NCBI GenBank assembly: GCA_963662275.1
Contig: OY759316.1
Span: 2,176,001-2,240,000, forward strand
Source of the DNA: Candidatus Cloacimonadales bacterium
Lineage (GTDB): Bacteria; Cloacimonadota; Cloacimonadia; Cloacimonadales; DAONDQ01
Length of the DNA: 64,000 bases
Direction of reading: 5' to 3'
Every line of letters starts with the position of its first letter. Positions within the stretch are counted from its first letter, which is position 1. The notes beneath the pieces were generated by a model. That model searched no databases and was not told the origin of the DNA. It saw only the letters and a program-made list of their open reading frames with translations. This document shows positions 28,884 through 49,656 of this stretch, one piece after another. Both the position numbers and the translations under genes were made by a program.

Positions 28884-30744
28884 GAGACTGTTCAAAATTA
28901 ACCTCCATTTTACGCAGCCTTATTGGTAGTGACAGAGAAAAAGTGGTCTAAGTGCGACCAATCCACATTTTCTTGACATATGCGGGAGATATTTAAACTT
29001 GCTAAAAGTGATTCCTGACGCATGATTGGTTGACCTTTATCGACCAGTTCTTTGAACCAAAGCGAAAACACAAGGTTGCGGGTGGTTTCTTCAGATTTTA
29101 GTCCAAATCTACCGGATGTCACCTTCTTGATTTTGCGGTTCCAGCGTTCAGAGACATTGGAAGTCAAACCTTTGCTGAGGTGTCTCCAATCACTAATGAT
29201 ATTGCTTTTGATGTATTCGGCGGCGGTTGGGGGAGTAATAGCTGTCAGGCTTGCGATACCCTTTTTCCTTCCGCCCGCCGTTTCTCTTCGGAAAGCTTTC
29301 ATAATCCTCTTCTTAAAGAACTTGTCCCTGTCTTCAGGGAGATGACATTGACTGATTCTTTTGAAGAGATTTCGTATCTTATGGAACTTACAGAGTTGGT
29401 AATGGACTTTTGGAAACACTGTTTTTCTTGCAACTGCTAACGATTTACTGCCATCACTGACAATCAGGGTTGGATCTTTCCTGTAGAGCTGTCTGAAGGT
29501 TCTGAAACATGCTTCGAATGATTCTTTCTTTGTGTCAGGATACAACTCACAAAACAGAGGGATGTGAGTCACAAAATCAACAATACTGATGACATAGTAC
29601 GGAATACCTTTGATCTTCACATATTTCTCATCAATGCTGATCTTTCCGCTCCACTTACCGATTGAGTTCAGAATCAGGCTCTGCAGGTCAGCGATTTCAT
29701 GCCAGAGATTTGAGACTGTAGCTTTACAGGTGTTGAGCAGCAAAGCTATCGTCTCGAAGTTCATACCGCTTCCAACCAGGTAATGTACCAGCAGACACAG
29801 GTTCTTGCGTTCCAGACTATGGAACGGCTTTGCATCGGCGGTTCTATGGGATGTATTGCCTTTAGCAGTCTTCATTTGTTCCAGGAGTCTGTCACAGATA
29901 ACAGGTGTATTCTGCTGACCGGCAAGCAGTTTCAGCAGATGTACAGCATCACCGCCTACTGTCTTTTTCAGAAGAAGCTTCTGAGCTTGCTTAACTACAG
30001 ACAGAGAATTGACCTGAGAAGCATATTTGCAGAAAGTGGTATAGGACATTTTAAAATCATGATGGCTGATGAACTCCTGATACATGACATTTAAAGGTAA
30101 AAGCAGGTTATTGATAACAAAATTCTCGATCTGAGGAATACACTCCAGCAGGTCAACTTTCCGGCTTAAATATGCCAGGATATCATGACCATGCTGCTCA
30201 AACTCTTGCCAGAAATTATGTACATTCCTGCGGTCTGCGTAGTTAAACAGATCAGCTATTTGCTGAAGTGTAAGGAGGTTGTCTCCGCCTATTCCTACTA
30301 ATAAGCGTAGAAACGCTATTAAGAACTTGTGGTTTGATGTTGTCTCAGGCAAAGTGAATGAAAATGGTACGTTAATACTTACATGGTATTGGTTACTTTC
30401 ATGACTAACACTTACCGCTTCTTGAATTGGAGTGTTTTTTTGTCATAATATCCTCCCTTTTGTTACCAGGTAACAAATGCCATTGAAGCTATAGCAAAAA
30501 ACTTGTAAAGAACTATTTTATATGATTTTAACTACACATTTAGTCAGAAACGGCTTCGAAACATTACTTATAATCGCGTGTTTTTCAATTTTAGTCAAAA
30601 AGCTTAACTTGTGATTTGGTGTCCTTAGCAGAGCTTATCTGTCAATTCTGGAAGGTATGTTAAATTATGACCGTTTCGACCACTTTTTTCAACTTGCTAC
30701 TTTCTAACTTATTGAATATTATGAATAACTTCATGAACAGTCTC
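28884..30744 (-). mobile_element. Insertion sequence copy 2 (1861 bp, inverted relative to copy 1)
   Basis: Same terminal inverted repeats; 8-bp duplication ccggtaat at 28876-28883 and 30745-30752. Confidence 0.92.
28910..30352 (-). CDS. DDE transposase, protein identical to 25542..26984
   Basis: Same 480-aa translation in the ORF track. Confidence 0.9.
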   Translation of the reverse strand: MPETTSNHKFLIAFLRLLVGIGGDNLLTLQQIADLFNYADRRNVHNFWQEFEQHGHDILAYLSRKVDLLECIPQIENFVINNLLLPLNVMYQEFISHHDFKMSYTTFCKYASQVNSLSVVKQAQKLLLKKTVGGDAVHLLKLLAGQQNTPVICDRLLEQMKTAKGNTSHRTADAKPFHSLERKNLCLLVHYLVGSGMNFETIALLLNTCKATVSNLWHEIADLQSLILNSIGKWSGKISIDEKYVKIKGIPYYVISIVDFVTHIPLFCELYPDTKKESFEACFRTFRQLYRKDPTLIVSDGSKSLAVARKTVFPKVHYQLCKFHKIRNLFKRISQCHLPEDRDKFFKKRIMKAFRRETAGGRKKGIASLTAITPPTAAEYIKSNIISDWRHLSKGLTSNVSERWNRKIKKVTSGRFGLKSEETTRNLVFSLWFKELVDKGQPIMRQESLLASLNISRICQENVDWSHLDHFFSVTTNKAA

Positions 30745-34992: not shown

Positions 34993-37104
34993 ATCGAGTA
35001 GGGTGATGCTGGATAATTAATCCCAGCATCATCCCTCTCACAGAACCGTGCGTACGGGTCTCGTACACGGCTCCTGATAATCTTTGTAATTACTCGCAGT
35101 AATTAAATAAAACACTTGTCTGAAGCGATGTCAGATCAAACAACTTCAGTCCTTCAAACCACTTGTTCGGCAAGGCAAAGTTTAGGTGGAAGCTCAGGGA
35201 GTTACGCCATCTGGTCATGGATAGTTTTGGACATTCTCCTTTGAAGCCTTATCTCCGTAATGCTTTATGGAACGCTTTCCAGCTTTTCCATTCACGCATC
35301 TTCTTCATCCGAAGCCTCCTTCGTATCCATTCCATCAGGCTCTCAAAGATGCTCTTACAGCTTGCAGCCCTGAAATAGTTACCCCATCCTCTTAGTATAG
35401 GATTCAGGTTTTCTATTATCATGGCTATGGGTATGCCACTGTTGCGGGGAGTAAGTTTTCGTATCTTATCCTTGAAGCGTTTCAAACGTTCCCTGTCGAT
35501 ACAGACACGCTTACCTTTGATGTTAAATCCAAGATAACTGACCCCGCTGCTGATACTGCTGATATGAGTCTTTTCCAGATTGACTTGCAGGCGAAGTTCT
35601 TCAAGTATCGCTGTCGCTATCTTTTGATATTGCTCTGCCTTTTTCCTGGTCGGAGCAAATATCAGGATGTCATCAGCATAACGTACTATCCTGATATTCC
35701 GCTGTTTCATCTTCTGGTCGAACTCATCCAGATAGATATTCATCAATAAGGGTGAGATTACTCCACCTTGCGGACTGCCTATCTCAGTAGCTTTGAAATC
35801 CCCATCGACCATTACTCCTGATTTGAGAAAACGGCTGATTAATCTCAGCAATGTACCATCACTGATTTTCCTGTTCAGACGGCTCAATATCCGTTCGTGG
35901 TCTAAGGTGTCAAAACATTTGGATAAGTCCATATCCACGGCATAACCCAAATTGTAAGCTGTAAGAAAACGCTGGGCTTTTGCTACGGCATGCTGGCAAG
36001 ACCGATGCGGTCTGTAACCATAACTGGACGGATGGAAGTCAGGCTCAAATATCGGTTGTATGATATTCAGGATTGCCTGCTGCACTACTCTGTCTCTTAC
36101 CGTTGGAATGCCAAGCGGTCTCATTTTGCCATTGGGTTTGGGTATCTCTACCCGCCTTACAGGTGATGGCTCGTAAGTACCTGCCATTAGTTCGTCGTGA
36201 AGTTGGTTGATGTTCACTGCCAGTTGTTCGTCAAAGTTTGCTATACTCTGCCCATCAATGCCTGATGCACCTTTATTTCGTTTTACCGAAGTGAAGGAAG
36301 CATACAGGTTGGGCAGGGAGTACACCTTGTCGATTAAGCTGTAGTATTTTCTCATGACATTTCCTGTCTCATTGTGATTCGTCTTGAGGTGTTCATCGAT
36401 GATGATTGTCTCTTCATCAGGTCGTCCTGCCTTCTTTAGCATATAGCAATATGGCAGAACTGCTAATTTTGTGCTTTGCCTGATTAATCAGTCTCGTGCG
36501 GTCGGGGTTGAAAGGAAGTTCGTCACCACTGTCAAACCGAGCCTCGAAGCATTTCAGCTCCTTCCTTCGTTTCTCACTTTTCATCGATTACTTTCCACAT
36601 TTCAAATCATGCCTTCGGATTATCTTCATCCCTTCGCATGAACTGCATCCTTTTGAGATACAGAACTCAGCATTACCGTGAATGCTGTCCCTTTTGTTTT
36701 ATCCTCCAGACTGTCACCAGCTTTCATAGGCAAAAGGTTAATCACTACTACGGAATCATCTGCCACCTGCTACCGCTTGGCTTCTCACTTGTCTTTCAAC
36801 TTGATCGAAGCTACTACCTTAAGTAGACAATAACAGGCTTCCCCAGTTAAGTTTTCCTGCCTGAATATGAAGCCATCTGTCATAATCTGTAGAGTTATCC
36901 AGCTTTCGGGCTTTCCCACTTTTAGAAAGGTTACCCACTCTACAAACCAACATCAGTTCACTTGCGCTGTGTTCCATATTCCCTCTGCGTCTTACTTCAG
37001 ACCCTGCCGTTGCCGGCAACGCCCTTGACCTCGAGTTGACTTCCCGCTGATTAGGTGTCAGGACTTCTTCCAGTCCATCGGCGCAGAAAACATTCTGGGC
37101 AAAC
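34993..37104 (-). mobile_element. Group II intron, class C
   Basis: 5' end GTTTGCCCAG at 37104; domain V GAGCCGTGTACGAGACCCGTACGCACGGTTC (~35043-35073); domain VI hairpin; 3' end CCTACTCGAT at 34993; internal RT ORF without an endonuclease domain. Confidence 0.9.
35090..36355 (-). pseudogene. ltrA: Intron-encoded reverse transcriptase/maturase with a premature stop in domain X
   Basis: LGIPTVRDR, GSPQGGVISP and YADD motifs. The TAA at 35249-35251 is followed in frame by GFKGECPKLSMTRWRNS...ALPNKWF...LFDL to a stop at 35090. Likely start MRKYYSL at 36355. Confidence 0.85.
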
Positions 37105-37489: not shown

Positions 37490-38539
37490 ATGAGAGGAGA
37501 GCCAATGTTTTCTAAAATTGTTTTTAATGAATTTACGGTTTTTACAAAACTTGAAATCCCATTTTCTCCAGGCATTAATGTCTTTATTGGAGAGAATGGA
37601 ACAGGGAAAACTCACATCCTGAAAGCCCTGTATGCCTCTGCTGATATCACTACTTCAGCGATAACCCAGAGTTTCGCAGATAAGATAAACAGAGTATTTT
37701 TACCATCTGAAAGCCATATTGGGAGATTGGTTCATCGAAAGATTGGCAGAAAAAAAGGGTCAATAGAAGTATATCGTGAAGGCAATGGAAATCAGTTAAA
37801 AATCAAATTAGAAATAACAAATATGATGAAGAACTCTGATTCAGCAAAGAAAAATGGTACTGATAAGTTATGGCTAAGCAATCCGGTTGAATCAGTTTAT
37901 ATACCTGTTAAAGAAATGTTATCCAATGCTCCAGGTTTCAAATCTGAATATGAGAATAAAAAGCTCGCTTTTGAAGAGATTTATCCGGATATAATCAGTA
38001 GAGCATTGCGTCCTGTAACAAGAGGTACTGCAGATCAAACAAAAAAGCAGCTAACTAAAATTCTTCAAAAGGCTATTGACGGCAATGTACTAACGAAAGG
38101 TGAAGAGTTCTTTTTGAAAAACAAGCAGGGAAATCTTGAATTCACTCTATTGGCTGAAGGGTTCAGAAAACTTGGATTGTTATCTATTCTTATCCAGAAT
38201 GGTACTCTAGCAAGCGGTTCTGTATTATTTTGGGATGAGCCTGAAACCAATCTTAATCCAAAGCTAATTAAAACTGTCATTGAGATTCTGATAAAACTAC
38301 AGCAAATGGGCATGCAAATCTTCATTTCGACGCATAATTACGTTGTCCTGAAATGGTTTAACCTGCTTTCTCAAAAAGAGGATAAGATATTATACCATTC
38401 GTTATTTCGGGAAGACAATGAGATTAAGATTCACACTACAGATAATTATGATTTAATCTCTCCGAATGCCATCGATGAAGTCTTTGGCGATATCATTGAT
38501 GAGGAAATCACAAAAGATATGGGGAATGCAGGAAAATGA
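37490..38539 (+). CDS. ABC/AAA_21-type ATPase (defence-associated)
   Basis: Walker A GENGTGKT, signature LAEGFRK, Walker B LFWDEPE, H-loop STHN. Confidence 0.85.
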   Translation: MRGEPMFSKIVFNEFTVFTKLEIPFSPGINVFIGENGTGKTHILKALYASADITTSAITQSFADKINRVFLPSESHIGRLVHRKIGRKKGSIEVYREGNGNQLKIKLEITNMMKNSDSAKKNGTDKLWLSNPVESVYIPVKEMLSNAPGFKSEYENKKLAFEEIYPDIISRALRPVTRGTADQTKKQLTKILQKAIDGNVLTKGEEFFLKNKQGNLEFTLLAEGFRKLGLLSILIQNGTLASGSVLFWDEPETNLNPKLIKTVIEILIKLQQMGMQIFISTHNYVVLKWFNLLSQKEDKILYHSLFREDNEIKIHTTDNYDLISPNAIDEVFGDIIDEEITKDMGNAGK

Positions 38540-39057
38540 ACACAGTTGAATGTGATGGTTTGAATTTCAACTTTCCCGATGCTATAGATGTCTTCAAGTT
38601 TGATGAAATGGATAAAACAAAACAAACCTTTCACTGTGGTTTCATGAAAGCTGTTGACATTGTAGCTGTTTTTAAAGACTATTCTGTTTTTATCGAACTT
38701 AAACAACATAAACAAGATTTGTATGATTTTTACAATACCTCAGATATAGCAGAAAGGACTACTCGATTCAATAAACTCCAAGACTTAAAAAGAGAATTGG
38801 TTTTAAAATACAGAGATTCTTTTCTATATCGTTATGCAGAAAAAGAAACCGATAAGCCAATCCATTACATCTGTCTTTTAACTCTCGACAACGCATTAAA
38901 TGGTCACATTGCCGGACTATTAAACAAAGAAATCCCAGTTGGTAAACCCAATCCAAGATGGAAGAAGGATATTGTAAAAAGTTGCAAGGTTCTTAATTTT
39001 AAAATGTGGAATAGAGCTTTCCCAAAATGGGTTGTTACAGGTATTGAGAACTCATAA
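38536..39057 (+). CDS. Hypothetical protein with PD-(D/E)xK-like nuclease motif
   Basis: KAVDIVA...FIELK; translationally coupled to the ATPase (ATGA). Confidence 0.55.
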   Translation: MNTVECDGLNFNFPDAIDVFKFDEMDKTKQTFHCGFMKAVDIVAVFKDYSVFIELKQHKQDLYDFYNTSDIAERTTRFNKLQDLKRELVLKYRDSFLYRYAEKETDKPIHYICLLTLDNALNGHIAGLLNKEIPVGKPNPRWKKDIVKSCKVLNFKMWNRAFPKWVVTGIENS

Positions 39058-39539
39058 TGGAAAACAAATTGGATGTGAAAGATTCGGAATCACATAGCCA
39101 GCAGCACGAAGCTTTGTGTAAAGCTGTAATCAGTCATTTCGTTCCAAAGTTTATGCCGGATGCGGTTTTGGTTTATTCCACTCTATCAATTGATTCTCCT
39201 GACCTCGATAAAGATCTTCAAACTAAGTTATGTATTCCAACTGATAATCCACAAGCATTACCTGATATTATTTTATATAAATCTGATTCCAACTGGTTAG
39301 TATTAATTGATTTAGTAACCGGACACAGAGTCATGGGCAATAATCGTTGTAAAGAATTGATAAGAATGTTCAAAGACTCTCCTATTGAACAGGTTTTCGT
39401 AAATGCATTTCATAATAAAAAGGAAATGACAGATTCTCAAACTGATATAGCATGGGGAACAAATGTCTGGTTTTCTGAAGAACCAGAGCATATGATACAT
39501 TTTGATGGGAATCACGTTGTGGAACCGTACAAGAAATGA
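39057..39539 (+). CDS. BsuBI/PstI-type restriction endonuclease C-terminal domain (stand-alone)
   Basis: H.AL.KAVI.HFVPKF, LPDIILY...NWLVLID, IAWGTNVW..EEPEHMIHFDG. Confidence 0.75.
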   Translation: MENKLDVKDSESHSQQHEALCKAVISHFVPKFMPDAVLVYSTLSIDSPDLDKDLQTKLCIPTDNPQALPDIILYKSDSNWLVLIDLVTGHRVMGNNRCKELIRMFKDSPIEQVFVNAFHNKKEMTDSQTDIAWGTNVWFSEEPEHMIHFDGNHVVEPYKK

Positions 39540-39831
39540 CTATTCAGTAATTTCTTATTTTTCACTATTTCAAGGTTGTGATAATATTCTTTGATATATC
39601 TTCTGCAATATTAATTTTGAACTGCTATTAAATGAGCATTCCTTAATTAGCAGACCTAAATCTCATTTGCTATTAATTAATATTGACAAGTTTTGAGATA
39701 TCTGTTTATGAGTAATCAATATTTTGTGAACGTCCTTGTATTAATGAAGTTACACTGAGCATAGGGAAAATTAACAAAGATACTCAGAATATTGAAACTT
39801 ACAAAATATCAAGGGATCAAAGGAGGATACG

Positions 39832-41793
39832 ATGAAATTAAAATCATTTCGAGTAACTGAATTCAAGTCTATTATCGATTCAAATGAAATACTAATCAAT
39901 GATATCGGATGTTTGGTCGGAAAAAATGAAGCTGGAAAGACTGCCTTATTACAAGCATTGTATAGGTTGAATCCGATTGATCAGGTCAATACGGACTTTA
40001 ATGTAACTAATGATTACCCTCGTGCAAATGTTTCTAACTATGAGATGGAAGTTTCAGAAGGTGAAAGATTTCCTTCTACAGTTATCAGTGCTGAGTTCAT
40101 TATCGAAGATTCTGACTTTATAGAAATGGGAATTGATCCAGCAATGCTTCCTGAAAAAAAAATAACTTTATTTAAAGGCTATGATAATATTGACTATTTT
40201 ACCTTATCCGTTTCACAAGATTTATATATAGAATGGCAATTTAGCAAGGTCAATTATTCTGAAGATGAACTAAATAAAGATCTAATTAAAACTATCATTA
40301 ATTGCAATACTATTAAGGATTTTGCTACAATAAACACCGAACCATTTAAAGGAGTGACGCAATGTGCGACTCTTGTAGAATTTATTACAAACATTCAAAA
40401 GCAACATCCTTCTCATGAAATTTATACAAAATATGTTGCACCGATAGTGCCTAAATTTCTATATTTTGATGAATTTTACCAAATGTCTGGAATGGTCAAT
40501 ATTCCGAAACTTAAATCAAGAGTTAGTAATAATCAAATCAAAGATAGTGATAAACCAATGTTAGGGTTAATAGAACTTGCTAGGTTGAGTCTTGATTCTT
40601 TTGATCAAATTAAAGAAACAAGGGAATTACTTAATAAGCTTGAAGGGGCATCAAATACCATTCAAAGATCTTTTATGAAATATTGGTCTCAAAGTAGCAA
40701 CATAAATCTGCAACTTGATTATCGTGAGGGTAAAACTCAAGATCAAGAAGAATTTCGATCAGGTGGCAATATTATAACTGCTATAAGAGACAATCTACAT
40801 CAAGTGACAACAATGATTGGAGAGAGATCGAGAGGTTTTATTTGGTTCTTTTCTTTTATCGCTTGGTTCTCACTTCAAAAATCAAAATATAAGAATAATA
40901 TAATTCTCCTATTAGATGAACCTGGTCTAACCTTACATGCCAAAGCACAATATGATCTTTTAAATTATATTGAAAAAGAATTAAGCCCTTACCACCAAGT
41001 AATTTATACTACACATTCCCCATTTATGATAGATATGAAACACATTGAGAGGATCAATATTGTTGAAGACAAGGGTCTTGATATTGATGAGATTATTGGA
41101 ACAAAGGTGACGCAGGACATTCTTGAAACGGGGAAAGATAGCTTGTTCCCTCTTCAAAGTGCATTGGGATATGAAATTACTCAATCTTTATTTATTGGTC
41201 CATATTGCTTGATTGTCGAAGAGCCTTCTGATTTACTATATTTAACTGCAATTTCTTCAATACTCGAGAAAAATGGAAGAGTATTTATAGATCCGCGATG
41301 GGTAATTACCCCAGTCGGTGGTATTGACAAAGTGCCTGCATTTATTTCATTATTTGGTTCTCAAAAAAATATGAAAATTGCCGTATTAATCGATTTTCAA
41401 TCAAAAGATAAGCAACTGATTGAAGGATTGTATAAAAAGAAACTGATTAAACAGACTAATGTGAAAACATTTTCTGATTATCTTAGTGGAAAAGATGCAG
41501 ATATTGAAGATATTTTTGATAATGAATTTTATATCAACTTAGTAAATTCAGAATACAAACAGGATTTGGCAAAACCGATAACAACAAAATTTCTTAATAC
41601 TAAAATTCCGCGTATCATTCTTCAACTGGAAGATTATTTTAAATCAAATCCACTGAAAAACAACATCACATATAATCACTACCGCCCTTCTAGGTATTTT
41701 AATGAAAACCTTGGTAAATTACAGGGAGCATTATCTGAGGAGAGTCTAAGTAGATTTGAATCAATTTTCAAAGATTTGAATACACTACTATAA
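39832..41793 (+). CDS. OLD-family ATP-dependent endonuclease (ABC ATPase + TOPRIM)
   Basis: GKNEAGKT, RSRGFIWF, LLLDEPG, TTHSP; TOPRIM LIVEEPSD...PVGG...DIEDIF. Confidence 0.8.
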   Translation: MKLKSFRVTEFKSIIDSNEILINDIGCLVGKNEAGKTALLQALYRLNPIDQVNTDFNVTNDYPRANVSNYEMEVSEGERFPSTVISAEFIIEDSDFIEMGIDPAMLPEKKITLFKGYDNIDYFTLSVSQDLYIEWQFSKVNYSEDELNKDLIKTIINCNTIKDFATINTEPFKGVTQCATLVEFITNIQKQHPSHEIYTKYVAPIVPKFLYFDEFYQMSGMVNIPKLKSRVSNNQIKDSDKPMLGLIELARLSLDSFDQIKETRELLNKLEGASNTIQRSFMKYWSQSSNINLQLDYREGKTQDQEEFRSGGNIITAIRDNLHQVTTMIGERSRGFIWFFSFIAWFSLQKSKYKNNIILLLDEPGLTLHAKAQYDLLNYIEKELSPYHQVIYTTHSPFMIDMKHIERINIVEDKGLDIDEIIGTKVTQDILETGKDSLFPLQSALGYEITQSLFIGPYCLIVEEPSDLLYLTAISSILEKNGRVFIDPRWVITPVGGIDKVPAFISLFGSQKNMKIAVLIDFQSKDKQLIEGLYKKKLIKQTNVKTFSDYLSGKDADIEDIFDNEFYINLVNSEYKQDLAKPITTKFLNTKIPRIILQLEDYFKSNPLKNNITYNHYRPSRYFNENLGKLQGALSEESLSRFESIFKDLNTLL

Positions 41794-41812
41794 AAAAAAT
41801 TAAGGGGATAGA

Positions 41813-42682
41813 ATGAAAAATACTGGGCGAGAATACGAAGAACTTACTGAAGAAATCTTTAAAAGTATTTTAGATATGAAAAACTATGTTACTTTACGTT
41901 TAGATAGGAATGTAAAAGTAAAAGGGAAATCAGGACAAAAACATGAAATCGACGTATATTGGGAATATCAATTAGGTCATGACCCCTCTCCGAAACTCAT
42001 CTTATTTCAATCAAAAGATTGGAAATCAAACGTCTCAAAAGGAGATGTTATGGCTTTTCATTGTGTTCTGCAAGATATTCCTGGTCAACCAAACGGAATT
42101 TATGTTACTAAGACTGGATATCAATCTGGAGCTATTGAATATGCTAAGTTTCACGGTAATCCACTATGGGAACTTAGACCTCCGACAAAAGAAGATTGGG
42201 AAAATCGTATTAAAGATATTCACTTTGAAATCCATTGTTCTACTCCAGATGTTAAATTGGAATTCAGTTTTGATAATGAATGGGCTAGGAATAAGTTCGA
42301 TGAGTTAGGCATTGAACCTGTTGAATTATCTATGGCGGGTATGAAACGCGACATTTACATTTTTGATAAACAATTTCAACAAACCAATGAAACTTTAGAT
42401 TCTATTGAAAATAAATATATTAAAATTTGTGAAGATTCTAAATCGGATCATATGGAAATAGAACATGATTTTGTTCCAGAATCATATATACGTACAAATA
42501 ATGATGCATTTCCATTTATGAAGATTAACGGAATAAAATTTGATATCAACATTCTGAAACATAATGAGACGATGATAATCAAAGGAGAAGACGTCGTCAA
42601 ATATAAATTATCTGAATGTTTTTCCGGTGCTCTATTTACAATTAATAAGGACAATCGATTAATTCCTCATTCAAATACCTGA
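41813..42682 (+). CDS. Mrr-like restriction endonuclease with uncharacterised C-terminal domain
   Basis: GREYEE, GKSGQKHEIDV, QSKDW, GIYVTKTGYQSGA motifs. Confidence 0.75.
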   Translation: MKNTGREYEELTEEIFKSILDMKNYVTLRLDRNVKVKGKSGQKHEIDVYWEYQLGHDPSPKLILFQSKDWKSNVSKGDVMAFHCVLQDIPGQPNGIYVTKTGYQSGAIEYAKFHGNPLWELRPPTKEDWENRIKDIHFEIHCSTPDVKLEFSFDNEWARNKFDELGIEPVELSMAGMKRDIYIFDKQFQQTNETLDSIENKYIKICEDSKSDHMEIEHDFVPESYIRTNNDAFPFMKINGIKFDINILKHNETMIIKGEDVVKYKLSECFSGALFTINKDNRLIPHSNT

Positions 42683-42753
42683 GGCGAAGTTGTTAACAAA
42701 ACACCTTCAAATTACTTTGAAAACAGTTATTAAAATATCAATAGGAGGTCAGC

Positions 42754-43878
42754 ATGCCAAACACTGCACTATATTATCCCTGGATAGACATTTCCCAAGA
42801 AGGTGAATCATGGCTGAAAACATCCTATCTATTTTGGGATAGCATACGAACTATAAACCCTGAATTCCTAACAAAACCGTATCAATTAGTAACTGCTCAA
42901 ATCTTAATGAACGAGGGGTTTTTGGAACCATATCTGGTAAATAGTGATATGGAAATTGTAAATAGTGCATCATGGGAATTTATTCAAAATTTTTTTAGTA
43001 ATGAAGTAGCATCTATGATGCTAAATAGCATCGATACAAATCCAGTGATCCATTTGGATAAACTTAATATGGTTCAATTTGATGTAATGGGTAAACGATT
43101 ATTAACAGAGATGTCATATGATTTCCCGATTCATCACAATAAAATGAATTATGAATTAAGACAAAGATTAAGGAAAATGTTCAACAGTAATAATGATAAT
43201 TCTGAATGGTTACATCTTCCATCATTTATTTCAGATTCATACATGACATTTCTAGCAAATGCAATCTCAGAGAAGGAAGGCTATGGTTCTCTAACATCAA
43301 AAACAACTGCTCGTAATCTTTATCAAATCGCAAAGTTCGACGCACAAGTTTATTTTCAATATTCATTTAGTGAGGAAAATGTTAATATTGATTACCGAAC
43401 TTTAGCGACTGGTATTTTAGCAAATATGTCTATCTCAACTCCAAAAATACGCGAGGATGTTTCAATTAAAAATTTGATGAAATTTAAAGTGAGATATTCT
43501 GATGAGTTAATTGCTTTTAGAAATAGCATAAATGAGTTAACAAAATCTATCAATAGTGATGTAGAATACAATGCAATGATGCATTTGATAGACGAACTAT
43601 ACAATAACCATGTGAAATTGAATCTAAGGAATCTGGAAAGAGCTCTTGATGGAATGAATATCAAACATACTGCTACAAGTCTGTTCAACACTGCATTCTT
43701 TTCTGTCGGTTCATCTTTATTATTGATGAATAGTGGGTTTTCAACTCCGCAGGCAATACTAGCCGGTGCTGGAATTTCTCTGGTCTATTCGTCAATTCGT
43801 TACAACCATGAAAAAGAAGAGTTGCTACGTAATAATCCTTATTCCTACTTGATGCATATTCAAAGAGATTTTAGATAA
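42754..43878 (+). CDS. Hypothetical protein (DUF6236-like) with C-terminal hydrophobic hairpin
   Basis: ALYYPWIDI...WLK...LFWD N-terminus; two hydrophobic segments before NPYSYL. Family name is tentative. Confidence 0.5.
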   Translation: MPNTALYYPWIDISQEGESWLKTSYLFWDSIRTINPEFLTKPYQLVTAQILMNEGFLEPYLVNSDMEIVNSASWEFIQNFFSNEVASMMLNSIDTNPVIHLDKLNMVQFDVMGKRLLTEMSYDFPIHHNKMNYELRQRLRKMFNSNNDNSEWLHLPSFISDSYMTFLANAISEKEGYGSLTSKTTARNLYQIAKFDAQVYFQYSFSEENVNIDYRTLATGILANMSISTPKIREDVSIKNLMKFKVRYSDELIAFRNSINELTKSINSDVEYNAMMHLIDELYNNHVKLNLRNLERALDGMNIKHTATSLFNTAFFSVGSSLLLMNSGFSTPQAILAGAGISLVYSSIRYNHEKEELLRNNPYSYLMHIQRDFR

Positions 43879-43948
43879 TTAAATATTGCTTTGCAAAATA
43901 TAAATATCTATTAATAATATTGCGTACAAATTTCAACAAGGAGTTTAC

Positions 43949-45499
43949 ATGATTTCATCACCAAGAGTTTTCGTTGGATCCTCTACAGATGCTGAAGAAG
44001 TCGATTTTCAGGTACGAGCTATTCTGGAAAAAATAGGTGCTACAGTTGTTGGTTGGAGAGATGTTTTCAAACCTGGTGATGTTACACTATTAGAATTACT
44101 GAAACTTGGTACATCTGTAGATGCAGCATTACTTATCGCTTCTCCAGATGATATGACTCAACGCCACGAAGATAAACACCTTTCCCCTAGAGATAATGTT
44201 TTACTTGAGTTAGGTATATTCCTTTCTTGTTTTGGCATGCATCGAACAGGAATACTTCATGTGAAAATTGGTGATAATATGGCTACGTTACCGACTGATC
44301 TAAAAGGAATTACTACAATTACATATGATACAAACAATCCAAATGAAAACACTAAGAAATTAGCTCAATGGATTGAATGTGTCAAAAAAGAACTCGATGC
44401 AGAATATCCTGGAATAAATATGGTTCTAAATAAAATTCAAAGTTATTTCAATTCCATACATCCAAGCTGGCTAAAACAAGTTGAACGTTATATTCTTCAT
44501 AAATTTGTCTTAGATTTAAAACTAGCTGCACATGGACATATTATCTTGTCACCTGGAAGATATTTTGAAGAGCTTTTTGACGAATTAGAAAATGTCTCAG
44601 CGGATTATGAAATTTCGGCAATTGCAACTTTATCCTCATCATTTTGGTCTCATGACCAAGAACAGCAATTATACGTAGATAAAAACATCGAAGCATCAAA
44701 AAAAGGGGTTTCTATTCGAAGAATGTTCATCATTCCTGATCAGAAATGGCGAGCATTCTTTCCTGTAATTCATAAGCAGATAGAAGCAGGAATAGAAATT
44801 CGAAGAGCTAAACCATCTATTTTATTAGAAAATCCTTCTTTAGAAGATATGGTGCTTTTTTTAAATAGGAAAACTAATGACTTAAGAGCTTATACTGCGG
44901 AACAAGTAATTGGAAACCCTAATATAATACGCCGTGGCAAAATAATATTAGATTCAGAAGAACGTTATGATTTACTAAGAGCGTTCGAACGTGCATGGTC
45001 TGTAGCATCTGTGATAACCGAAAAAGATATTAAAGTTTCACCATTTGTCGAAATCGCTTTTAGCAAACAAGTTCAAAATTTGAAAACTTATTACCTAAAT
45101 TCAAATGTGATTACCTGCATTGAGGCTGCAACTGCTAAGGGAATACCTCTAAAGAATGAGTTAAAATCTATTCTTTTATCTTCTTCAAAAGGTTATATTG
45201 TCGTTCATTTACCCGGAGATGCTGAAGTATCATTGCATAAAGTTAAAAAGGACTTAGATCTTCGAGAAGCAAGTTTAGCATCACTCAGTCAATTAAATAA
45301 AATAGGACTTAAGCCGGGTACAATTTGTGCTATTAAAGACCCTGTAAGGAGTTTTCAAAATCTTATCAGTAAAAGAGTTTTTGAATTAGATTACGTTTCG
45401 ACCAATAATGGAACCTTGCGTGGATATTATAATTTTCCGCCATCATTATTACTTGAAACCGAGAGTGTAAAAATGGGAGATTATGAAATCGATAGATAG
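43949..45499 (+). CDS. TIR domain (Cap12/PycTIR-type) - DUF6879-like middle domain - YbaK/ProX aminoacyl-tRNA-editing-like domain fusion
   Basis: RVFVGSS...SPDD...PRDNVLLELG...LPTDLKGIT (TIR); 'FW...YV..N.EA..KGVSIRRMFII' (middle); TCIEAA...ELKSILL...VVHLPGDAEVSL.KV...LAS...GLKPGTI (YbaK). Confidence 0.75.
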   Translation: MISSPRVFVGSSTDAEEVDFQVRAILEKIGATVVGWRDVFKPGDVTLLELLKLGTSVDAALLIASPDDMTQRHEDKHLSPRDNVLLELGIFLSCFGMHRTGILHVKIGDNMATLPTDLKGITTITYDTNNPNENTKKLAQWIECVKKELDAEYPGINMVLNKIQSYFNSIHPSWLKQVERYILHKFVLDLKLAAHGHIILSPGRYFEELFDELENVSADYEISAIATLSSSFWSHDQEQQLYVDKNIEASKKGVSIRRMFIIPDQKWRAFFPVIHKQIEAGIEIRRAKPSILLENPSLEDMVLFLNRKTNDLRAYTAEQVIGNPNIIRRGKIILDSEERYDLLRAFERAWSVASVITEKDIKVSPFVEIAFSKQVQNLKTYYLNSNVITCIEAATAKGIPLKNELKSILLSSSKGYIVVHLPGDAEVSLHKVKKDLDLREASLASLSQLNKIGLKPGTICAIKDPVRSFQNLISKRVFELDYVSTNNGTLRGYYNFPPSLLLETESVKMGDYEIDR

Positions 45500-45587
45500 C
45501 ACTTACTTTATTCGAGGTCGAGGTGACTTTCTCTCTAAACAGACGGGGTTACTGCCATGAACCCCAACATTGCACCACAGGTTACTG

Positions 45588-45659
45588 CGGACAGCTAACA
45601 GCGCAGAGCAGAACAAACTGTAACGCCTTATTCATAAGGTGTTACAAAATAGCAAGATC
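45588..45659 (+). repeat. REP-like family B, collapsed single copy
   Basis: Shares its left flank with 49657-49707 and its right flank with 49778-49798. Confidence 0.75.
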
Positions 45660-45805
45660 GGCGTCTTACTCTACAAGTAGAACAAATTATATTGACCATA
45701 GATACATTATGTAATATATTGTTATCATATATTATTAACACATATACTACACGATAACACAGTATATGTTATCATGCAAATATGATGTTACTAAAGTGAG
45801 GTTGT

Positions 45806-46783
45806 ATGCAGAATCTGAATATTTTGGAAGACTATGTTTACGATATATTGGGAATAAAAGTAAGAGTGAATAAAGTCGATATCGCTAGCAGACTCCCTTT
45901 TTATCTTCAGAACAATTATCACTTTTATAGCATTCAAATCTATAATCATGATTACAATTTGATGTTAGCTAATGATGAGAATGAGATAACTCCTGCCCAG
46001 ATCAATAAGCATATTGGAGTTGTTAAGGAAAAAACAGGTCGGGAGACTATCTTTTGCTGTTCCAGGATAAGCTCATTCAATCGGAAGCGTCTGATAGAGT
46101 ATAAAATTCCATTTATTATCCCAGGTAATCAGATGTTCTTACCTGATATTGGTATTGATTTAAGAGAATATTACAAATATAGAAAACAGGCAACAGGAAA
46201 GCTAAGCCCTTCAACCCAGGTTATCGTATTAGATGCCTTGCTAAATCATGATTATACACCCAAAACGACATCACAACTCTCAAATAAACTGCCTTATACC
46301 AAAATGACCATAGGCAGGGCTTTTGATGAGTTGGAAGCAAATGAGATAGCCAAAATTGAGATGCTTGGGAAGGAACGTATTTTACATTTTAATCATACAG
46401 GCAAAGAGCTTTGGGATACAGTGTACAGCCTTTTACGTAATCCTATTGCAAAGAGGATTTACATAAATGAGCTTAATCCAAAAGAATCCATGCCTATTTC
46501 CGGTTTCACTGCGTTATCTCTGGAAACGATGATCAGTGAATCTCAATATCGAACTTATGCGATGAGCAGAGAAGAATATAAATTACTCCAGATAAGAAAT
46601 AACGTAGTTGAACTCGAATATCCTGCTCAGGATGCAATTGAAATTGAGATTTGGAGTTATTCTCCACGGTTGCTGTCACAAGGGGAACGTGTTGATAATC
46701 TCTCCCTGTATTTAAGTTTGAAAGATAATGAAGATGAAAGAGTTGAAATGGCTTTGGAATCACTTTTGGAGCAGATACTATAG
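45806..46783 (+). CDS. Winged-HTH protein, possibly an AbiEi-like antitoxin/regulator
   Basis: IPFIIPGNQMFLP, central HTH (SQLSNKLPYTKMTIGRAFDEL), SGFTALS, C-terminal DNLSLYLSL...DERVE. Confidence 0.55.
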   Translation: MQNLNILEDYVYDILGIKVRVNKVDIASRLPFYLQNNYHFYSIQIYNHDYNLMLANDENEITPAQINKHIGVVKEKTGRETIFCCSRISSFNRKRLIEYKIPFIIPGNQMFLPDIGIDLREYYKYRKQATGKLSPSTQVIVLDALLNHDYTPKTTSQLSNKLPYTKMTIGRAFDELEANEIAKIEMLGKERILHFNHTGKELWDTVYSLLRNPIAKRIYINELNPKESMPISGFTALSLETMISESQYRTYAMSREEYKLLQIRNNVVELEYPAQDAIEIEIWSYSPRLLSQGERVDNLSLYLSLKDNEDERVEMALESLLEQIL

Positions 46784-47079: not shown

Positions 47080-47826
47080 TTATTCTTTCTTAATGCCATT
47101 GCGTTCTCTCATTGACACTTTACCATCGATAAAAATAGGATAGGAATCGTGTATAATCCGGTCAAGGATGGCATCGGCAAGGGTTTCCTGACCAATCTTC
47201 TCATGCCATCCTCCGGTTCTGAACTGAGAACAGAAGATCGTTGATGAGTGCTGATGCCTCGCTTCGATAATCTCCAAAAGATCTCTTGCCTCTTGTTCTC
47301 TGAGTGGTGTCAGCAGCCATTCATCAAGTATCAGCAGTTTGATCTGCTTGTATTGTTTTATGACTTTCTTAAAAATACCTTCACCTCTGGCAACTGCCAG
47401 GTCATCCAGCAATTCGGGAAGTCGTATATATCTGACAGGATAATAGTTCCGGCAGGCTGCTATCCCGAAAGCACAACCCAGCCAGGATTTCCCGTTTCCT
47501 GATGCTCCCATAATGATTATATTCCGATTTTCGCTGATGTAACTGCAGGTTGATAAACGGATAATCTCAGATCGATCCAGCTTTCTGTCATCATGATATT
47601 CTACGTCTTCAATACTTGCCTGGCTGAACTTCAAGTTTGCCTTCTTAATTAGCCTCTGCAGTCTGTTATTTTTGCGTCTGGCCCATTCAGCATCTACGAG
47701 CAGACTGAAGCGTTCTTCGAAAAGCAAATCCTTAAATGCACCATCATGTAATTGCTGGCAGAAAGTATCAGCCATAGCACTCAAATGCATCTCGTGAAGC
47801 TTATTGACTGTTGATTGGCTGATCAT
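47080..47826 (-). CDS. istB: IS21 helper ATPase IstB
   Basis: GASGNGKS, LLILDEW, LADAILDRIIH. Confidence 0.95.
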   Translation of the reverse strand: MISQSTVNKLHEMHLSAMADTFCQQLHDGAFKDLLFEERFSLLVDAEWARRKNNRLQRLIKKANLKFSQASIEDVEYHDDRKLDRSEIIRLSTCSYISENRNIIIMGASGNGKSWLGCAFGIAACRNYYPVRYIRLPELLDDLAVARGEGIFKKVIKQYKQIKLLILDEWLLTPLREQEARDLLEIIEARHQHSSTIFCSQFRTGGWHEKIGQETLADAILDRIIHDSYPIFIDGKVSMRERNGIKKE

Positions 47827-49367
47827 TTATTTTTCCTCCCGTAGTAGTCTGCACCTCTGGTAATACCAAAATCAGAAGCAGGATCATTCTTTGCAGTCTC
47901 TGCCGCATTATTGATCTTATCAAAACCCGTCTTGAGTATGGTTTGGATATTTTTATAACCGGGATTGGGTGTATAAGATAATGCCCTTTGACATGCACTT
48001 TCGAGCCTCTGCACAGAATACCTGTCAGCTGATTTCAGAAGTGCCATACAGGAACGGTATCCCTGCTGTTCAACACGATAGGATGCCAGAATAGACTTAA
48101 TTACGATCATCGTATGTTCCCCTATTTCCTTTGCCCAGGAGATAAACCTCTCTGCATTCCATTCCTGATATTTCTGATGCTGTTCAGGCATATGTTCAGG
48201 GAGTGTCTGATACTGACCGGGATGACCAAATTTCCTGACATGGGAAGCGATTCTGTTGGAGTTATAGAAAACCTCGACAACTCTGCTTGTGATGCGTACA
48301 TCCACATAGTATTTTATGTATTCATAAGGAACCGAATAGTACATCTTATCCACGCTTATATGATAATTGAACTGTACTGTTGCCTTTGACCAGGCAGCAA
48401 GCTCATATGGCGACAATGACAATGGAATAAGCATGGGCTGTTCTTCTGCCTGAAAGACACTTTCTCTGCTTCCTTCTTTCTTTTGAAAGGGCTTGGTATT
48501 GAACTCTCCCAGTTTTTCCCTGATTGACATATTGAGTTCATGAAGCGAAAAGAATGTCTGGTTTCGCAAGGCAGCAATGATCCAGGTTGAGATGACTCCA
48601 ACTGTGCCTTCTGCACTGGGCTTATCCTTTGGTCTTCTAACTCTGGCAGGTATTACCGCAGTATCGTAATAAGCAGACATTTCTCCATAGGTTCTGTTGA
48701 TAACGGGAGTATACCACGACACATGGTCAACTCCCGTCTTAAGATTATCAGGAACAAGTATTTTAGTAACTCCATTAAAGTACTTGAAGCTATTTATATG
48801 AGCCTGAATCCAGCTTTCCATATTCATGGAAAGAAAGGCTTCCACATAGGAATAACCACTGTACGGGAGGGTTGCTACAAAAACATAGGCTTTGATCGGT
48901 TCACCGGTAATGTTGTTTTTGATGGCGGCAGTCTGTCCAGCCCAGTCCACTTCCAGCTTTTCTCCTGGTTTGTGTTTTATTCGCATGGTTGCTTTTGTCT
49001 TTTGTGAGTAATCATGGTAATGTTTGCAAAATTGCGTATACTTGTAGGGAATAGCCTGATTATTCCTGCATCCCTCAGAGTATTCATGCCAGAGTAGCGA
49101 CAGTGTTACACCACTCTTGGCAAGTTCCTTGTGTATGTGTTCATAATCAGGCATCTTCTGCGGGTTTGACGATAAGTAAGCCGGAAAGAGCTGCTCTTCG
49201 ATCATCTCATTTGTTAATGTATCAGGAAGCGGCCATTCAAGGCTCTGGTCTGTTGCCCTTTGAATGATCATCGACACGTTATTGCGGGAACAGGATAAAC
49301 TCGCCGCTATGCCTCGTCTGCTTATTCCCTGGCTGTGTAAGCGAAGGATCTCTCGGTAATTGGTCAT
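47823..49367 (-). CDS. istA: IS21 transposase IstA
   Basis: PGEKLEVDWAG, LVPDNLK, PKDKPSAEGTV. Start likely MTNYREIL behind a GGAGG RBS. Confidence 0.95.
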   Translation of the reverse strand: MTNYREILRLHSQGISRRGIAASLSCSRNNVSMIIQRATDQSLEWPLPDTLTNEMIEEQLFPAYLSSNPQKMPDYEHIHKELAKSGVTLSLLWHEYSEGCRNNQAIPYKYTQFCKHYHDYSQKTKATMRIKHKPGEKLEVDWAGQTAAIKNNITGEPIKAYVFVATLPYSGYSYVEAFLSMNMESWIQAHINSFKYFNGVTKILVPDNLKTGVDHVSWYTPVINRTYGEMSAYYDTAVIPARVRRPKDKPSAEGTVGVISTWIIAALRNQTFFSLHELNMSIREKLGEFNTKPFQKKEGSRESVFQAEEQPMLIPLSLSPYELAAWSKATVQFNYHISVDKMYYSVPYEYIKYYVDVRITSRVVEVFYNSNRIASHVRKFGHPGQYQTLPEHMPEQHQKYQEWNAERFISWAKEIGEHTMIVIKSILASYRVEQQGYRSCMALLKSADRYSVQRLESACQRALSYTPNPGYKNIQTILKTGFDKINNAAETAKNDPASDFGITRGADYYGRKNK

Positions 49368-49656
49368 TGCATTGACCTCCATGAATTGATTTACACTGAT
49401 ACAGTGCATTAATTCATGTTGGTTTTTTCTTTCAAAATAGCAAGGTGGCTCTATTTTAGCGAAGACGTGGCTCTAAAACTCCGTACAAGTGGCTCTCATT
49501 TAGAATATTATTCAATCCAAAGATTGTTGGTGATTTACGAAATGAAGAGCATACTTTAGGATGCTTCTTCGTAGCGCTGACTTTAGGCGGTATCTATTTC
49601 TGTTTGGGAATTACCTCCTGAAGTAGGTGCTACATGCAGAAGGTTACAGCTAACAG

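Follow-up and report, generated by a model that had tools for sequence, protein, structure and literature searches.

A TIR-PLD-YbaK protein of a Candidatus Cloacimonadales bacterium as a candidate one-polypeptide immune sensor-effector

We analysed a stretch of 64,000 nucleotides (hereafter the window) from the genome of a Candidatus Cloacimonadales bacterium (GenBank assembly GCA_963662275.1, contig OY759316.1, positions 2,176,001 to 2,240,000 of the forward strand), which carries at 43949..45499 a gene for a protein that combines an N-terminal TIR domain, a PLD-like domain and a C-terminal YbaK-like domain. Our analysis suggests that this TIR-PLD-YbaK protein is an immune sensor-effector in one polypeptide, in which a TIR NAD+ hydrolase (NADase) would be activated by a small amino-acid-derived ligand bound at the YbaK-like domain, a reading to which we give a probability of about 0.5. 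When the versions with a small-molecule ligand and with a tRNA ligand are taken together, the general reading of the protein as a sensor-effector NADase is likely. The evidence consists of the domain identities and conserved residues, the recurrence of the family, the exchange of its N-terminal domains, its link to particular neighbouring genes and its setting in a defence island, and from it we predict the NADase activity, the activation by oligomerisation, the nature of the ligand and the protection against phage.

Domain architecture of the TIR-PLD-YbaK protein

Full-length relatives at 35-52% identity are spread across phyla, which indicates that 43949..45499 is a real gene and not a chance open reading frame (ORF); the positions of its domains and diagnostic codons are collected in Table 1. 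The N-terminus of the protein is a Cap12/PycTIR-type TIR domain with the catalytic motif. Residues 6-127 match the Pfam family PF10137 (CAP12-PCTIR_TIR) with E=2.8e-23 and 82.6 bits against a cutoff of 24.7, over profile positions 1-118 of 119, and by sequence this part also matches the solved structures of Cap12 (9lmq, 8e-16), SfSTING (7un8, 1.6e-13) and PycTIR (8jsj, 5.9e-10). Foldseek comparison with the PDB further matched the N-terminus to TIR-STING filament structures. The PRDNVLLELG motif of the window TIR is aligned with (V/P)RDNVVFEFG of Cap12 and ARDNVHLEFG of PycTIR, and its Glu (E87), which we take to be the equivalent of the catalytic residue of Cap12, is invariant in all 23 aligned family members. 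The PADLOC matches of the protein are confined to the TIR part (CBASS TIR effector models, PycTIR and PDC-S35). The Cap12 equivalogs NF050171 and NF050172 were not reached (79 and 67.5 bits against 450), with the match limited to the TIR part, and an NCBIfam scan of the whole protein gave only sub-threshold partial matches to Cap12, ProRS and YbaK_EbsC. According to the available text of a preprint, ligand-bound dimers of this TIR subfamily polymerise into NADase filaments that form composite NAD+ sites (10.64898/2026.08.12.744502). By analogy, the TIR domain of the window protein is predicted to be an NAD+ hydrolase that is silent until oligomerisation.

Structure modelling and profile alignment suggest that the C-terminus is a divergent YbaK/ProX fold, in which the Lys of the family is kept and the GGV(P/S)P loop is replaced. 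Residues 386-463 match PF04073 (tRNA_edit) with E=7.3e-12 and 45.9 bits against a cutoff of 25.5, and Foldseek matched the C-terminal model to ProX of T. thermophilus (2z0k, TM 0.81, root-mean-square deviation 1.7 over 139 columns) and YbaK of H. influenzae (1dbu, TM 0.77), also retrieving SadB (9qzk). Among the PDB sequences, the family profile found APE2540 at 3.9e-8; a phmmer search of the same sequences with the YbaK part of the window protein alone gave no match at E<=1, and the family profile was thus required. This profile puts the ELK motif (K406) on the conserved Lys of APE2540 and of TTHA1699 ProX (VKTLIV and VKSLVF), and, in 1wdv and 2cx5, GTVCA on the GGVPP loop and TNNG on the Gly-rich stretch. 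The GGV(P/S)P loop and the Gly-rich stretch form part of the substrate-binding pocket of the editing enzymes, and neither is kept in the window protein, which has GTICA and TNNG instead. The YbaK_EbsC equivalog TIGR00011 was not reached either (18.7 bits against 153.25), and the ProRS equivalog likewise stayed far below its cutoff. Cys390, E-L-K406, G457 and T485-N486 are invariant across the YbaK domains of the TIR fusion, of a racemase fusion described below and of stand-alone relatives, and these shared pocket residues imply a common ligand moiety.

On the structural evidence, an inactive PLD/TrmB-like domain is a more fitting description of the middle of the protein than DUF6879. Region 131-362, folded alone, was modelled with a predicted local distance difference test score (pLDDT) of 91.0 and a predicted TM-score (pTM) of 0.80 as a PLD-superfamily domain preceded by three long helices. 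Foldseek matched this model to TrmBL2 (3e-7), Zucchini, Nuc, TrmB, PPK1 and FAM83, and PLD3/4 are also among the closest PLD-fold matches; the Foldseek alignments to TrmBL2 cover 224-233 columns of the 232-residue model, and the VIA-align alignment to TrmBL2 covers the core only (model residues 66-226). With VIA-align, 22 PLD-superfamily chains were matched at Z>=8, ranging from 14.8 to 8.8 and including TrmBL2 (14.8), Nuc (14.7), NucT (14.6), SauUSI (14.2), FAM83B (13.7) and the sugar-binding domain of TrmB (12.6). Many residues of the middle domain are invariant in the family alignment, and no invariant or near-invariant His or Lys occurs at residues 131-362 in 23 sequences; the domain thus lacks the catalytic HKD motif, HxK(x)4D, and resembles the non-catalytic PLD folds most closely. 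By eye, LEDMV occupies the position expected of the HxK strand in the alignment. The best structural matches, the effector-binding domain of TrmB/TrmBL2 and the DUF1669 domain of FAM83, also lack the HKD motif. Sequence identity to these matches is 9-15%; the middle domain has no winged helix-turn-helix DNA-binding domain and is placed between TIR and YbaK.

Modelling of the full-length protein with AlphaFold2 from 23 family members gave a mean pLDDT of 82.9 and a pTM of 0.51, with poor definition confined to the linker at residues 363-375. These results bear on an earlier note on this DNA, made from the letters alone, which had described a Cap12/PycTIR-type TIR with its catalytic Glu, a YbaK/ProX C-terminus with the conserved Lys and an altered GTICA loop, and a 'DUF6879-like' middle. 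Both ends agree with that description, and the two Pfam families it had expected, PF10137 and PF04073, were found above their cutoffs. The middle has to be revised: the region in the window protein gave no Pfam match at E<=10, relatives matched PF21806 (DUF6879) below its threshold of 23.9 bits (P0046, 3.6e-5 and 23.7 bits; P0068, 4e-4 and 20.3 bits) and the family was reached at E<=1 in 2 of 11 alignment members, so that the sequence matches point at best to a remote relationship. The start codon is preceded by a Shine-Dalgarno-like site (Table 1). Promoter-like sites around the gene number 20 against a shuffled expectation of 17.9, in a scan that did not include Bacteroidota-type promoters, and terminator-like sites number 2 against 1.6, both at the level given by chance.

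A constant PLD-YbaK module with exchangeable N-termini and recurrent partners

In what follows, L labels denote loci of relatives, P labels relative proteins and G labels genomes, G000 being the host genome. A word-indexed search recovered 34 proteins, 24 of which (query included) have both PF10137 and PF04073 at 35-52% identity over ~99% of their length. Full-length relatives are encoded in 10 species-representative genomes, and the closest homologs of the window protein belong to other phyla. Among these genomes are members of Acidobacteriota (Holophagales, Thermoanaerobaculia, Angelobacter and Thermoanaerobaculum), Polyangiaceae (Myxococcota), Vulcanimicrobiota, Actinomycetota and Prolixibacteraceae (Bacteroidota). 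Scanning metagenomes with patterns of the PLD-like and YbaK domains added 54 loci, 32 of them covering the module. About 40 clusters at 50% identity carry the PLD-like+YbaK module in several phyla, and a profile of this module searched against 1.84 billion representative proteins gave 942 matches at E<=1e-3 and 105 at E<=1e-30. No relative of the module was found on viral contigs, tblastn gave no match among the PLSDB plasmids, and the BFVD viral folds held only relatives of single domains (TIR/NDT-like and PLD-like), none with the whole architecture. The relatives adjoin Shedu-like, NACHT, reverse transcriptase (RT), McrBC, AbiE and AbiH genes, as well as transposases and integrases.

The N-termini of 67 of the 150 listed module-profile matches were scanned against Pfam. 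Most have the PF10137 TIR; TIR_2 takes its place in P0047, P0048, P0059, P0061 and P0065 and DUF4062 in P0038, several proteins begin with ~100 residues that have no Pfam assignment, and P0036, P0046 and P0053 have no N-terminal domain. A Pkinase-DUF1508 gene stands immediately before a TIR-less PLD-YbaK gene at L100 and L101, and at L103 and L105 such a kinase gene precedes a TIR_2-PLD-YbaK gene. These swaps over an unchanged PLD-YbaK part indicate that the module is constant and the N-terminal domain interchangeable, as would be expected if one sensor served several exchangeable effectors. The available text of a preprint describes DUF4062 as a TIR-like NADase in phage defence (10.64898/2026.05.01.722283). 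At L001:8001-9584 and L010:1995-3521, relatives are split into two ORFs by a frameshift or stop that separates the TIR part from the remainder, so copies of the family do decay; the 380-residue TIR-less P0022, whose contig has the length of the L001 record (1,998,551 bp), is probably the downstream piece of the broken gene of L001.

At many loci, an asparaginase of ~369 residues (PF00710 and PF17763) stands beside the TIR-PLD-YbaK gene. Local tblastn found this subfamily in 13 of 42 module-covering loci (12 after removal of one duplicate record), and its members are 56-78% identical across phyla, above the conservation of the TIR-PLD-YbaK protein itself. Fourteen distinct loci are flanked by 5 kb or more on each side (the well-flanked set); eight of them have the asparaginase (L003, L004, L006, L009, L094, L098, L101 and L105), and its distance from the gene varies from 55 bp on the same strand up to 4 kb. 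As controls, none of 70 loci with other Cap12-type TIR proteins (935,534 bp; 48 loci of at least 12 kb) has an asparaginase match, and none of 400 further genomes sampled from the phylum of G001 matches the subfamily at E<=1e-80. Moreover, in four genomes with a clustered copy, the adjacent gene is the sole member of the subfamily and their other asparaginases show 30-34% identity, and the solo genome G005 has only an asparaginase paralog at 33% and no subfamily member. The subfamily is nearest to type I L-asparaginase, with GatD second-best, and stays below both NCBIfam cutoffs. A 369-residue ORF of asparaginase size at L001:181-1287 was considered and rejected as unrelated (19% identity, no Pfam match).

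Further enzymes recur beside the module. A fusion of a YbaK domain with an Asp/Glu racemase, nearest to cysteate and aspartate racemases, occurs at five loci (L006, L086, L094, L098 and L099), and the one at L098 carries an additional GNAT domain. Four loci (L006, L094, L098 and L105) have a LysA/DokD-like pyridoxal-phosphate decarboxylase; LysA- and DokD-type enzymes act on D-centres. Fusions with an FGE-sulfatase domain have a cyclase N-terminus at L098 and a PF10137 TIR N-terminus at L086. The Guanylate_cyc-FGE fusion of L098 has a weak match to PycC (7.9e-5), and a 514-residue FGE protein of L006 is 32% identical to it over its full length, although its N-terminus gave no Pfam match and no cyclase-domain match. 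Membrane proteins are of the PycTM type at L006 and L098, of the S_4TM type at L094 and DUF3147-like at L004, L086 and L099, and L094 encodes a TIR_2-asparaginase fusion. The six gene families found at L098 recur at L006, arranged and oriented differently, and this favours a single system over a chance grouping. Models for the asparaginase, the racemase fusion, the decarboxylase and the DUF3147-like protein are all lacking in PADLOC. A distant variant at L135:6412-11205 encodes on one strand a PNP_UDP-domain protein (PADLOC PDC-M60C, 1.6e-43), a stand-alone 162-residue YbaK protein of this subtype, a 228-residue ORF and a 701-residue asparaginase-domain fusion. These data indicate that the link of the module to the asparaginase, to the racemase with the same YbaK subtype and to the decarboxylase is non-random.

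Relatives of the YbaK domain also occur in other conserved contexts. A stand-alone YbaK of this subtype (C...ELK...TNNG) lies between a ~531-residue protein and a radical-SAM/SPASM enzyme at L114-L116 (L114:941-4193 and L116:6331-9583), and at L119:1472-2792 and L120:57-1503 a stand-alone YbaK of the same subtype overlaps the start of an ATP-grasp gene of the D-Ala-D-Ala-ligase-like kind; both are small-molecule or peptide contexts. NAD-related neighbours are NadE at L093:4067-5863 and an NrtR-type winged-helix regulator directly upstream at L007:7098-7865, and L001 has tryptophan 2,3-dioxygenase and a PF04199 'cyclase', presumably of the kynurenine formamidase family, at 1829-2650 and 16654-17433. 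The NAD-related neighbours could reflect chance or NAD homeostasis around an NADase.

The window copy and its defence island

The host genome is complete as one contig of 4,378,784 bp, and its only tRNA_edit-family match is the window gene; it seems to lack both a free-standing YbaK/ProX and the editing insertion of ProRS. The window copy is truly solo, and the gene was found in none of 40 related genomes (one of the same genus and 39 of the same order) at E<=1e-10. It lies in a low-GC island with the HEC-02A and HEC-02B genes, an ORF with a BsuBI/PstI restriction endonuclease (REase) domain, an AAA_15/OLD-like ATPase with an Mrr_cat nuclease, a DUF6236 gene and a MarR-like ORF, bordered by a group II intron on the left and IS21 on the right (Table 1). 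A scan of 11 neighbouring ORFs around the gene revealed neither a cyclase nor a CD-NTase.

The short BsuBI/PstI ORF, which matches only the C-terminal half of the REase models, is a nuclease domain that is either truncated or stands alone, and its scanned neighbours included no methyltransferase. The ATPase and Mrr_cat genes are possibly a two-gene ATPase-nuclease defence pair, which no single PADLOC system assigns together. DUF6236, the MarR-like ORF and Mrr_cat were considered as conserved partners of the TIR-PLD-YbaK gene and rejected, having no relatives in the other 136 loci. By eye, the C-terminal 60 residues of the DUF6236 protein resemble two hydrophobic helices. The 306-bp intergenic stretch 3' of the gene (45500-45805), by eye of higher G+C than its surroundings, contains a 15-pair hairpin at 45747-45779 (-) and gave no Rfam match at gathering thresholds. 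Farther away, inverted MULE/Mutator-type transposase copies with identical Pfam scores at 25542-26984 (+) and 28910-30352 (-) flank a Peptidase_MA/beta-propeller gene at 27114-28901, in an arrangement (25542-30352) that resembles a composite transposon.

Table 1 Features of the TIR-PLD-YbaK gene and of the surrounding defence island (positions in the window)
Feature	Coordinates	Strand	Basis or matches
TIR-PLD-YbaK gene, 516 residues + stop (TIR, helical linker, PLD-like, YbaK-like)	43949..45499	+	Intact ORF; full-length homologs
Shine-Dalgarno-like AAGGAG, 8 nt 5' of ATG	43940..43945	+	Direct sequence reading
Cap12/PycTIR-type TIR, residues 6-127, predicted NADase effector	43964..44329	+	PF10137; PADLOC; sequence and Foldseek matches
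Codon of Glu87 in RDNVLLELG, predicted catalytic Glu	44207..44209	+	Invariance; alignment to Cap12/PycTIR
Three long helices, residues 131-194, joining TIR to PLD-like domain	44339..44530	+	AlphaFold2 models
PLD-superfamily domain lacking HKD motif (residues 195-362), predicted to be a non-catalytic scaffold or to form a second ligand site	44531..45034	+	Foldseek; VIA-align
Low-confidence linker, residues 363-375	45035..45073	+	pLDDT < 50; length and sequence variable in alignment
Divergent YbaK/ProX-like domain, residues 376-516, predicted ligand sensor	45074..45496	+	PF04073; Foldseek; family profile
Codon of Lys406 (ELK), conserved YbaK-superfamily Lys	45164..45166	+	Invariance; profile alignment to ProX-type chains
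GTICA loop, residues 457-461, in place of canonical GGV(P/S)P	45317..45331	+	Profile alignment to 1wdv and 2cx5
T485-N486-N-G488 subfamily signature, in place of Gly-rich stretch	45401..45412	+	Aligned to GGGG and AAGG of 1wdv and 2cx5
Low-GC (31-35%) defence island holding the gene	37490..46783	.	Composition; Pfam; PADLOC; Rfam
Group II intron, left island edge (RT-maturase ORF 35249-36442; D1-D4 RNA, Rfam RF02001, 36852-37019)	35249-37019	-	Pfam; Rfam
HEC-02 gene pair, candidate defence system	37490-39057		349-residue AAA_21 ATPase HEC-02A 5.6e-123; overlapping 173-residue HEC-02B 4.2e-53 (PADLOC)
160-residue ORF with BsuBI/PstI REase domain only	39057-39539		PF06616 9.8e-35; PADLOC type II REase positions 172-316 of 317
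653-residue AAA_15/AAA_21 ATPase (OLD/Gabija/AriA type) and, 20 bp on, 289-residue Mrr_cat nuclease-domain protein	39832-42682		Pfam; PADLOC
DUF6236 protein, 374 residues, ending 70 bp upstream of the TIR gene	42754-43878		Pfam
MarR-like 325-residue ORF	45806-46783
IS21, right island boundary	47080-49409

Proposed mechanism, alternative explanations and relation to known systems

We propose that the TIR domain would act as an NAD+ hydrolase kept silent until the protein oligomerises, with the inactive PLD-like and divergent YbaK-like domains serving as a constant C-terminal receptor module. In complete systems, the enzyme resembling type I asparaginase and GatD would make or process a small amide or aminoacyl-type molecule, often together with the racemase that has the same YbaK subtype and the LysA/DokD-like decarboxylase; amide hydrolysis, then racemisation and then decarboxylation at a D-centre would be a chemically coherent order. 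Binding of the molecule in the YbaK pocket would let the TIR domains assemble into an active NADase, and the depletion of NAD+ would leave the infected cell no longer able to support the phage (abortive infection). The window copy would have lost, or never had, the accessory enzymes, and may respond to molecules of this class that arise in phage or host metabolism, or bind an aminoacyl-tRNA-like 3' end directly. A small amino-acid-derived ligand made or edited by the asparaginase is thus suggested by the gene neighbourhoods, where the asparaginase, the YbaK-racemase and the decarboxylase point at least as much to such a ligand as to tRNA; among the ligands that the earlier note had offered, 'aminoacyl adducts' come closest to the data. 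A more specific and tentative version is that the YbaK-like domain is a receptor for an immune messenger that is not a cyclic nucleotide and derives from an amino acid, which would be made or edited by the GatD/asparaginase-like amidohydrolase, the YbaK-fused racemase and the D-centre decarboxylase in turn and read out by TIR, TIR_2, DUF4062, PNP or kinase effectors, fused to the YbaK module or encoded next to it, with solo copies listening for it when infection produces it.

Several observations weigh against a small ligand made by partner enzymes, and some of them also support a tRNA ligand. In that alternative, the YbaK-like domain and the PLD-like fold, taken as nucleic-acid-binding, would bind a phage-altered, cleaved or imported aminoacyl-tRNA or tRNA 3' end and trigger the TIR NADase, the gene would be autonomous, and the asparaginase cluster would be a modulator or a separate layer; we regard this as rather unlikely. 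YbaK/ProX relatives of known function bind the aminoacyl-A76 end of tRNA, and the window domain shares their fold and conserved Lys; to our knowledge, the substrate of the YbaK-superfamily members with known function is aminoacyl-tRNA and not a free small molecule. Among the PLD-fold matches are nucleases (Nuc, Zucchini and PLD3/4) and TrmBL2, which binds DNA, and the second-best family of the asparaginase is the tRNA-dependent GatD, which uses a tRNA-bound substrate. The asparaginase has HGTNT where L-asparaginase I has HGTDT, and with Asn in place of Asp its chemistry is uncertain. It is also absent from six of the 14 well-flanked loci (L001, L002, L007, L008, L090 and L107). The host has two asparaginase genes, both distant from the window and with 26-28% identity to the subfamily; since it has no subfamily asparaginase and no other tRNA_edit match, the messenger-making pathway is absent there; indeed, the host has none of the accessory enzymes. 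Finally, the mutual orientation of the three domains is poorly defined in the full-length model.

The distribution of solo copies bears on both ligands. In a maximum-likelihood tree of the PLD-like+YbaK module (34 rows, with six identical duplicates left out), solo copies are scattered among asparaginase-linked ones, with 5 label changes and as few in 287 of 500 shuffles, and the window protein falls in a supported clade (96/82) with four linked, three solo and two unclassified rows. The interspersed labels indicate that the gene was repeatedly uncoupled from its partners, which means that the accessory genes are dispensable or often lost, and an autonomous sensor fits this equally well; a tRNA ligand would explain the many solo copies. 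What speaks for the small amino-acid-derived ligand over tRNA is the change of the GGV(P/S)P loop to GTVCA and of the Gly-rich stretch to TNNG, the occurrence of the same YbaK subtype fused to an amino-acid racemase or alone near ATP-grasp and radical-SAM genes, and the strong linkage to three enzymes of small-molecule type, which a tRNA ligand leaves unexplained. In addition, no tRNA gene lies within the window.

The remaining alternatives concern the roles of the domains, the immune function and the state of the window copy. It is highly improbable that the roles are reversed, with the YbaK-like domain as a promiscuous aminoacyl-tRNA deacylase effector that halts translation and the TIR-like domain as a nucleotide-binding or oligomerisation regulator. 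The invariant YbaK-family Lys and the NCBI title of one homolog, 'nucleotide-binding protein', would suit such a protein, but the catalytic Glu of the TIR and its surrounding motif are invariant, the N-terminus is swapped among three NADase-type families or for a separate kinase gene while PLD-YbaK stays constant, and the loops of the canonical editing site are altered in a domain that falls far short of the YbaK_EbsC score. Quite improbable, too, is a non-immune metabolic or regulatory protein that couples Asn/Asp metabolism to NAD turnover, with its partners forming an ordinary operon. The accessory enzymes do come from housekeeping families, the NAD-related neighbours (NadE at L093, the NrtR-like regulator at L007 and the kynurenine-pathway genes of L001) would fit, and the neighbours at L004 and L007 are mostly metabolic. 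Set against this are the patchy distribution shaped by lateral transfer, with no copy in the 40 related genomes and the closest homologs in other phyla; the rarity of the asparaginase subfamily among the 400 genomes; clusters that hold PycTM, S_4TM, TIR-FGE, TIR_2-asparaginase and PNP proteins of the effector type typical of CBASS and Pycsar; and flanks with McrBC, AbiE, AbiH, Shedu-like, NACHT and HEC-02 genes, transposases and integrases. We also consider it improbable that the window copy is a functionless orphan, intact in sequence and never activated in its host after the loss of the signal-making genes. The complete genome indeed holds no accessory genes anywhere, and the relatives at L001 and L010 are visibly broken; yet the ORF of the window is unbroken, keeps all residues that are invariant in the family and has a good ribosome-binding site, and solo copies with long flanks in at least six other lineages suggest a maintained solo state.

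Among known systems, Cap12 (TIR-STING, CBASS) and PycTIR/PucTIR (Pycsar-type) share with the window protein the TIR subfamily PF10137 and the catalytic Glu motif, and in Cap12 the TIR is likewise N-terminal. They also share its logic, a TIR and a ligand-binding domain in one polypeptide, and from the available text on these filaments ligand-driven oligomerisation would be expected here likewise (10.64898/2026.08.12.744502). In contrast, the sensor of the window protein consists of PLD-like and YbaK-like domains in place of a STING or cNMP-binding domain, and no CD-NTase or PycC is adjacent. By this comparison, the window protein may work like Cap12 and PycTIR and is not a member of CBASS or Pycsar. 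The closest concept is found in the V4R-asparaginase conflict systems predicted in an October 2026 preprint, whose available text describes TIR, HEPN, 2TM or ParA effectors fused to V4R together with an asparaginase gene and proposes that the asparaginase makes a diffusible messenger (10.64898/2026.10.19.760177). Both combine a variable effector, a small-molecule-binding domain and an asparaginase-family gene. However, the sensor here is PLD-like plus YbaK-like, with no V4R match in Pfam scans of the window protein or its relatives; the clusters add the YbaK-racemase fusion, the LysA-like decarboxylase and FGE-domain fusions; and the window copy has no asparaginase partner, unlike relatives at eight of the 14 well-flanked loci. 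The main text of that preprint, as available, does not mention YbaK or a racemase (10.64898/2026.10.19.760177). The PLD-YbaK family would be a parallel branch to the V4R systems with another sensor and more accessory enzymes.

The YbaK/ProX deacylases (1dbu; 2cx5/2z0k; 1wdv) have the same fold (TM 0.77-0.81), Pfam family and Lys, and differ from the window domain, which has GTICA, TNNG, the invariant Cys390 and the fusion to TIR and PLD-like domains. A YbaK-like domain in a regulatory or adaptor protein, not in editing, is described for SadB of Pseudomonas (YbaK/ProRS-like + HDOD) in the accessible text of PMC12075610; in that text, its partner is HDOD, its role is in the regulation of biofilms, and neither a TIR nor a link to defence is present. 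The TIR-PLD-YbaK architecture is absent from the PADLOC 2.0 models, and no description of it was found among about 8.4 million open papers and preprints, although supplementary tables of bioRxiv preprints may hold such architectures. The main text of a preprint on TIR signalling systems (10.64898/2025.12.03.692087) has no occurrence of YbaK, asparaginase, tRNA, PLD, racemase or decarboxylase, two eLife papers of the Aravind laboratory have none of asparaginase, YbaK or racemase, and the accessible part of a text that pairs YbaK with anti-phage concerns CRISPR arrays of Pseudomonas and not this architecture.

The earlier note had not recognised the architecture from described defence systems, in agreement with the searches, and had rightly seen no cyclase beside the window gene, although the cluster at L098 has one in its Guanylate_cyc-FGE fusion. 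The chance that the fusion is a one-off, which would have undone its interpretation, is ruled out by the ~40 clusters in several phyla; its idea of a YbaK sensor with a TIR effector fits the NADase-type N-termini swapped over a constant PLD-YbaK module, and the defence-island neighbourhood it looked for exists in the window, with HEC-02 and the OLD-like ATPase plus Mrr nuclease, and near defence genes in relatives. Overall, its interpretation is partly supported: the sensor-effector logic holds, and tRNA or phage-altered tRNA is one candidate ligand.

TIR NADases are central to bacterial, plant and animal immunity, and the systems differ in the switch. The switch here would be a translation quality-control domain (YbaK/ProX) together with a dead PLD domain, a sensor combination of which no description was found. 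The family belongs to non-pathogenic environmental bacteria and is compact, with one gene in the window and up to six in L098 and L006, and its tight, statistically clear linkage to a rare asparaginase, a YbaK-racemase and a LysA-like decarboxylase provides a biochemical handle. If the partner enzymes do make the ligand, the system would represent a new class of immune messenger and offer the first experimental entry into the asparaginase-based conflict systems, which have so far only been predicted, and a tRNA-editing fold would have been recruited as a second-messenger sensor.

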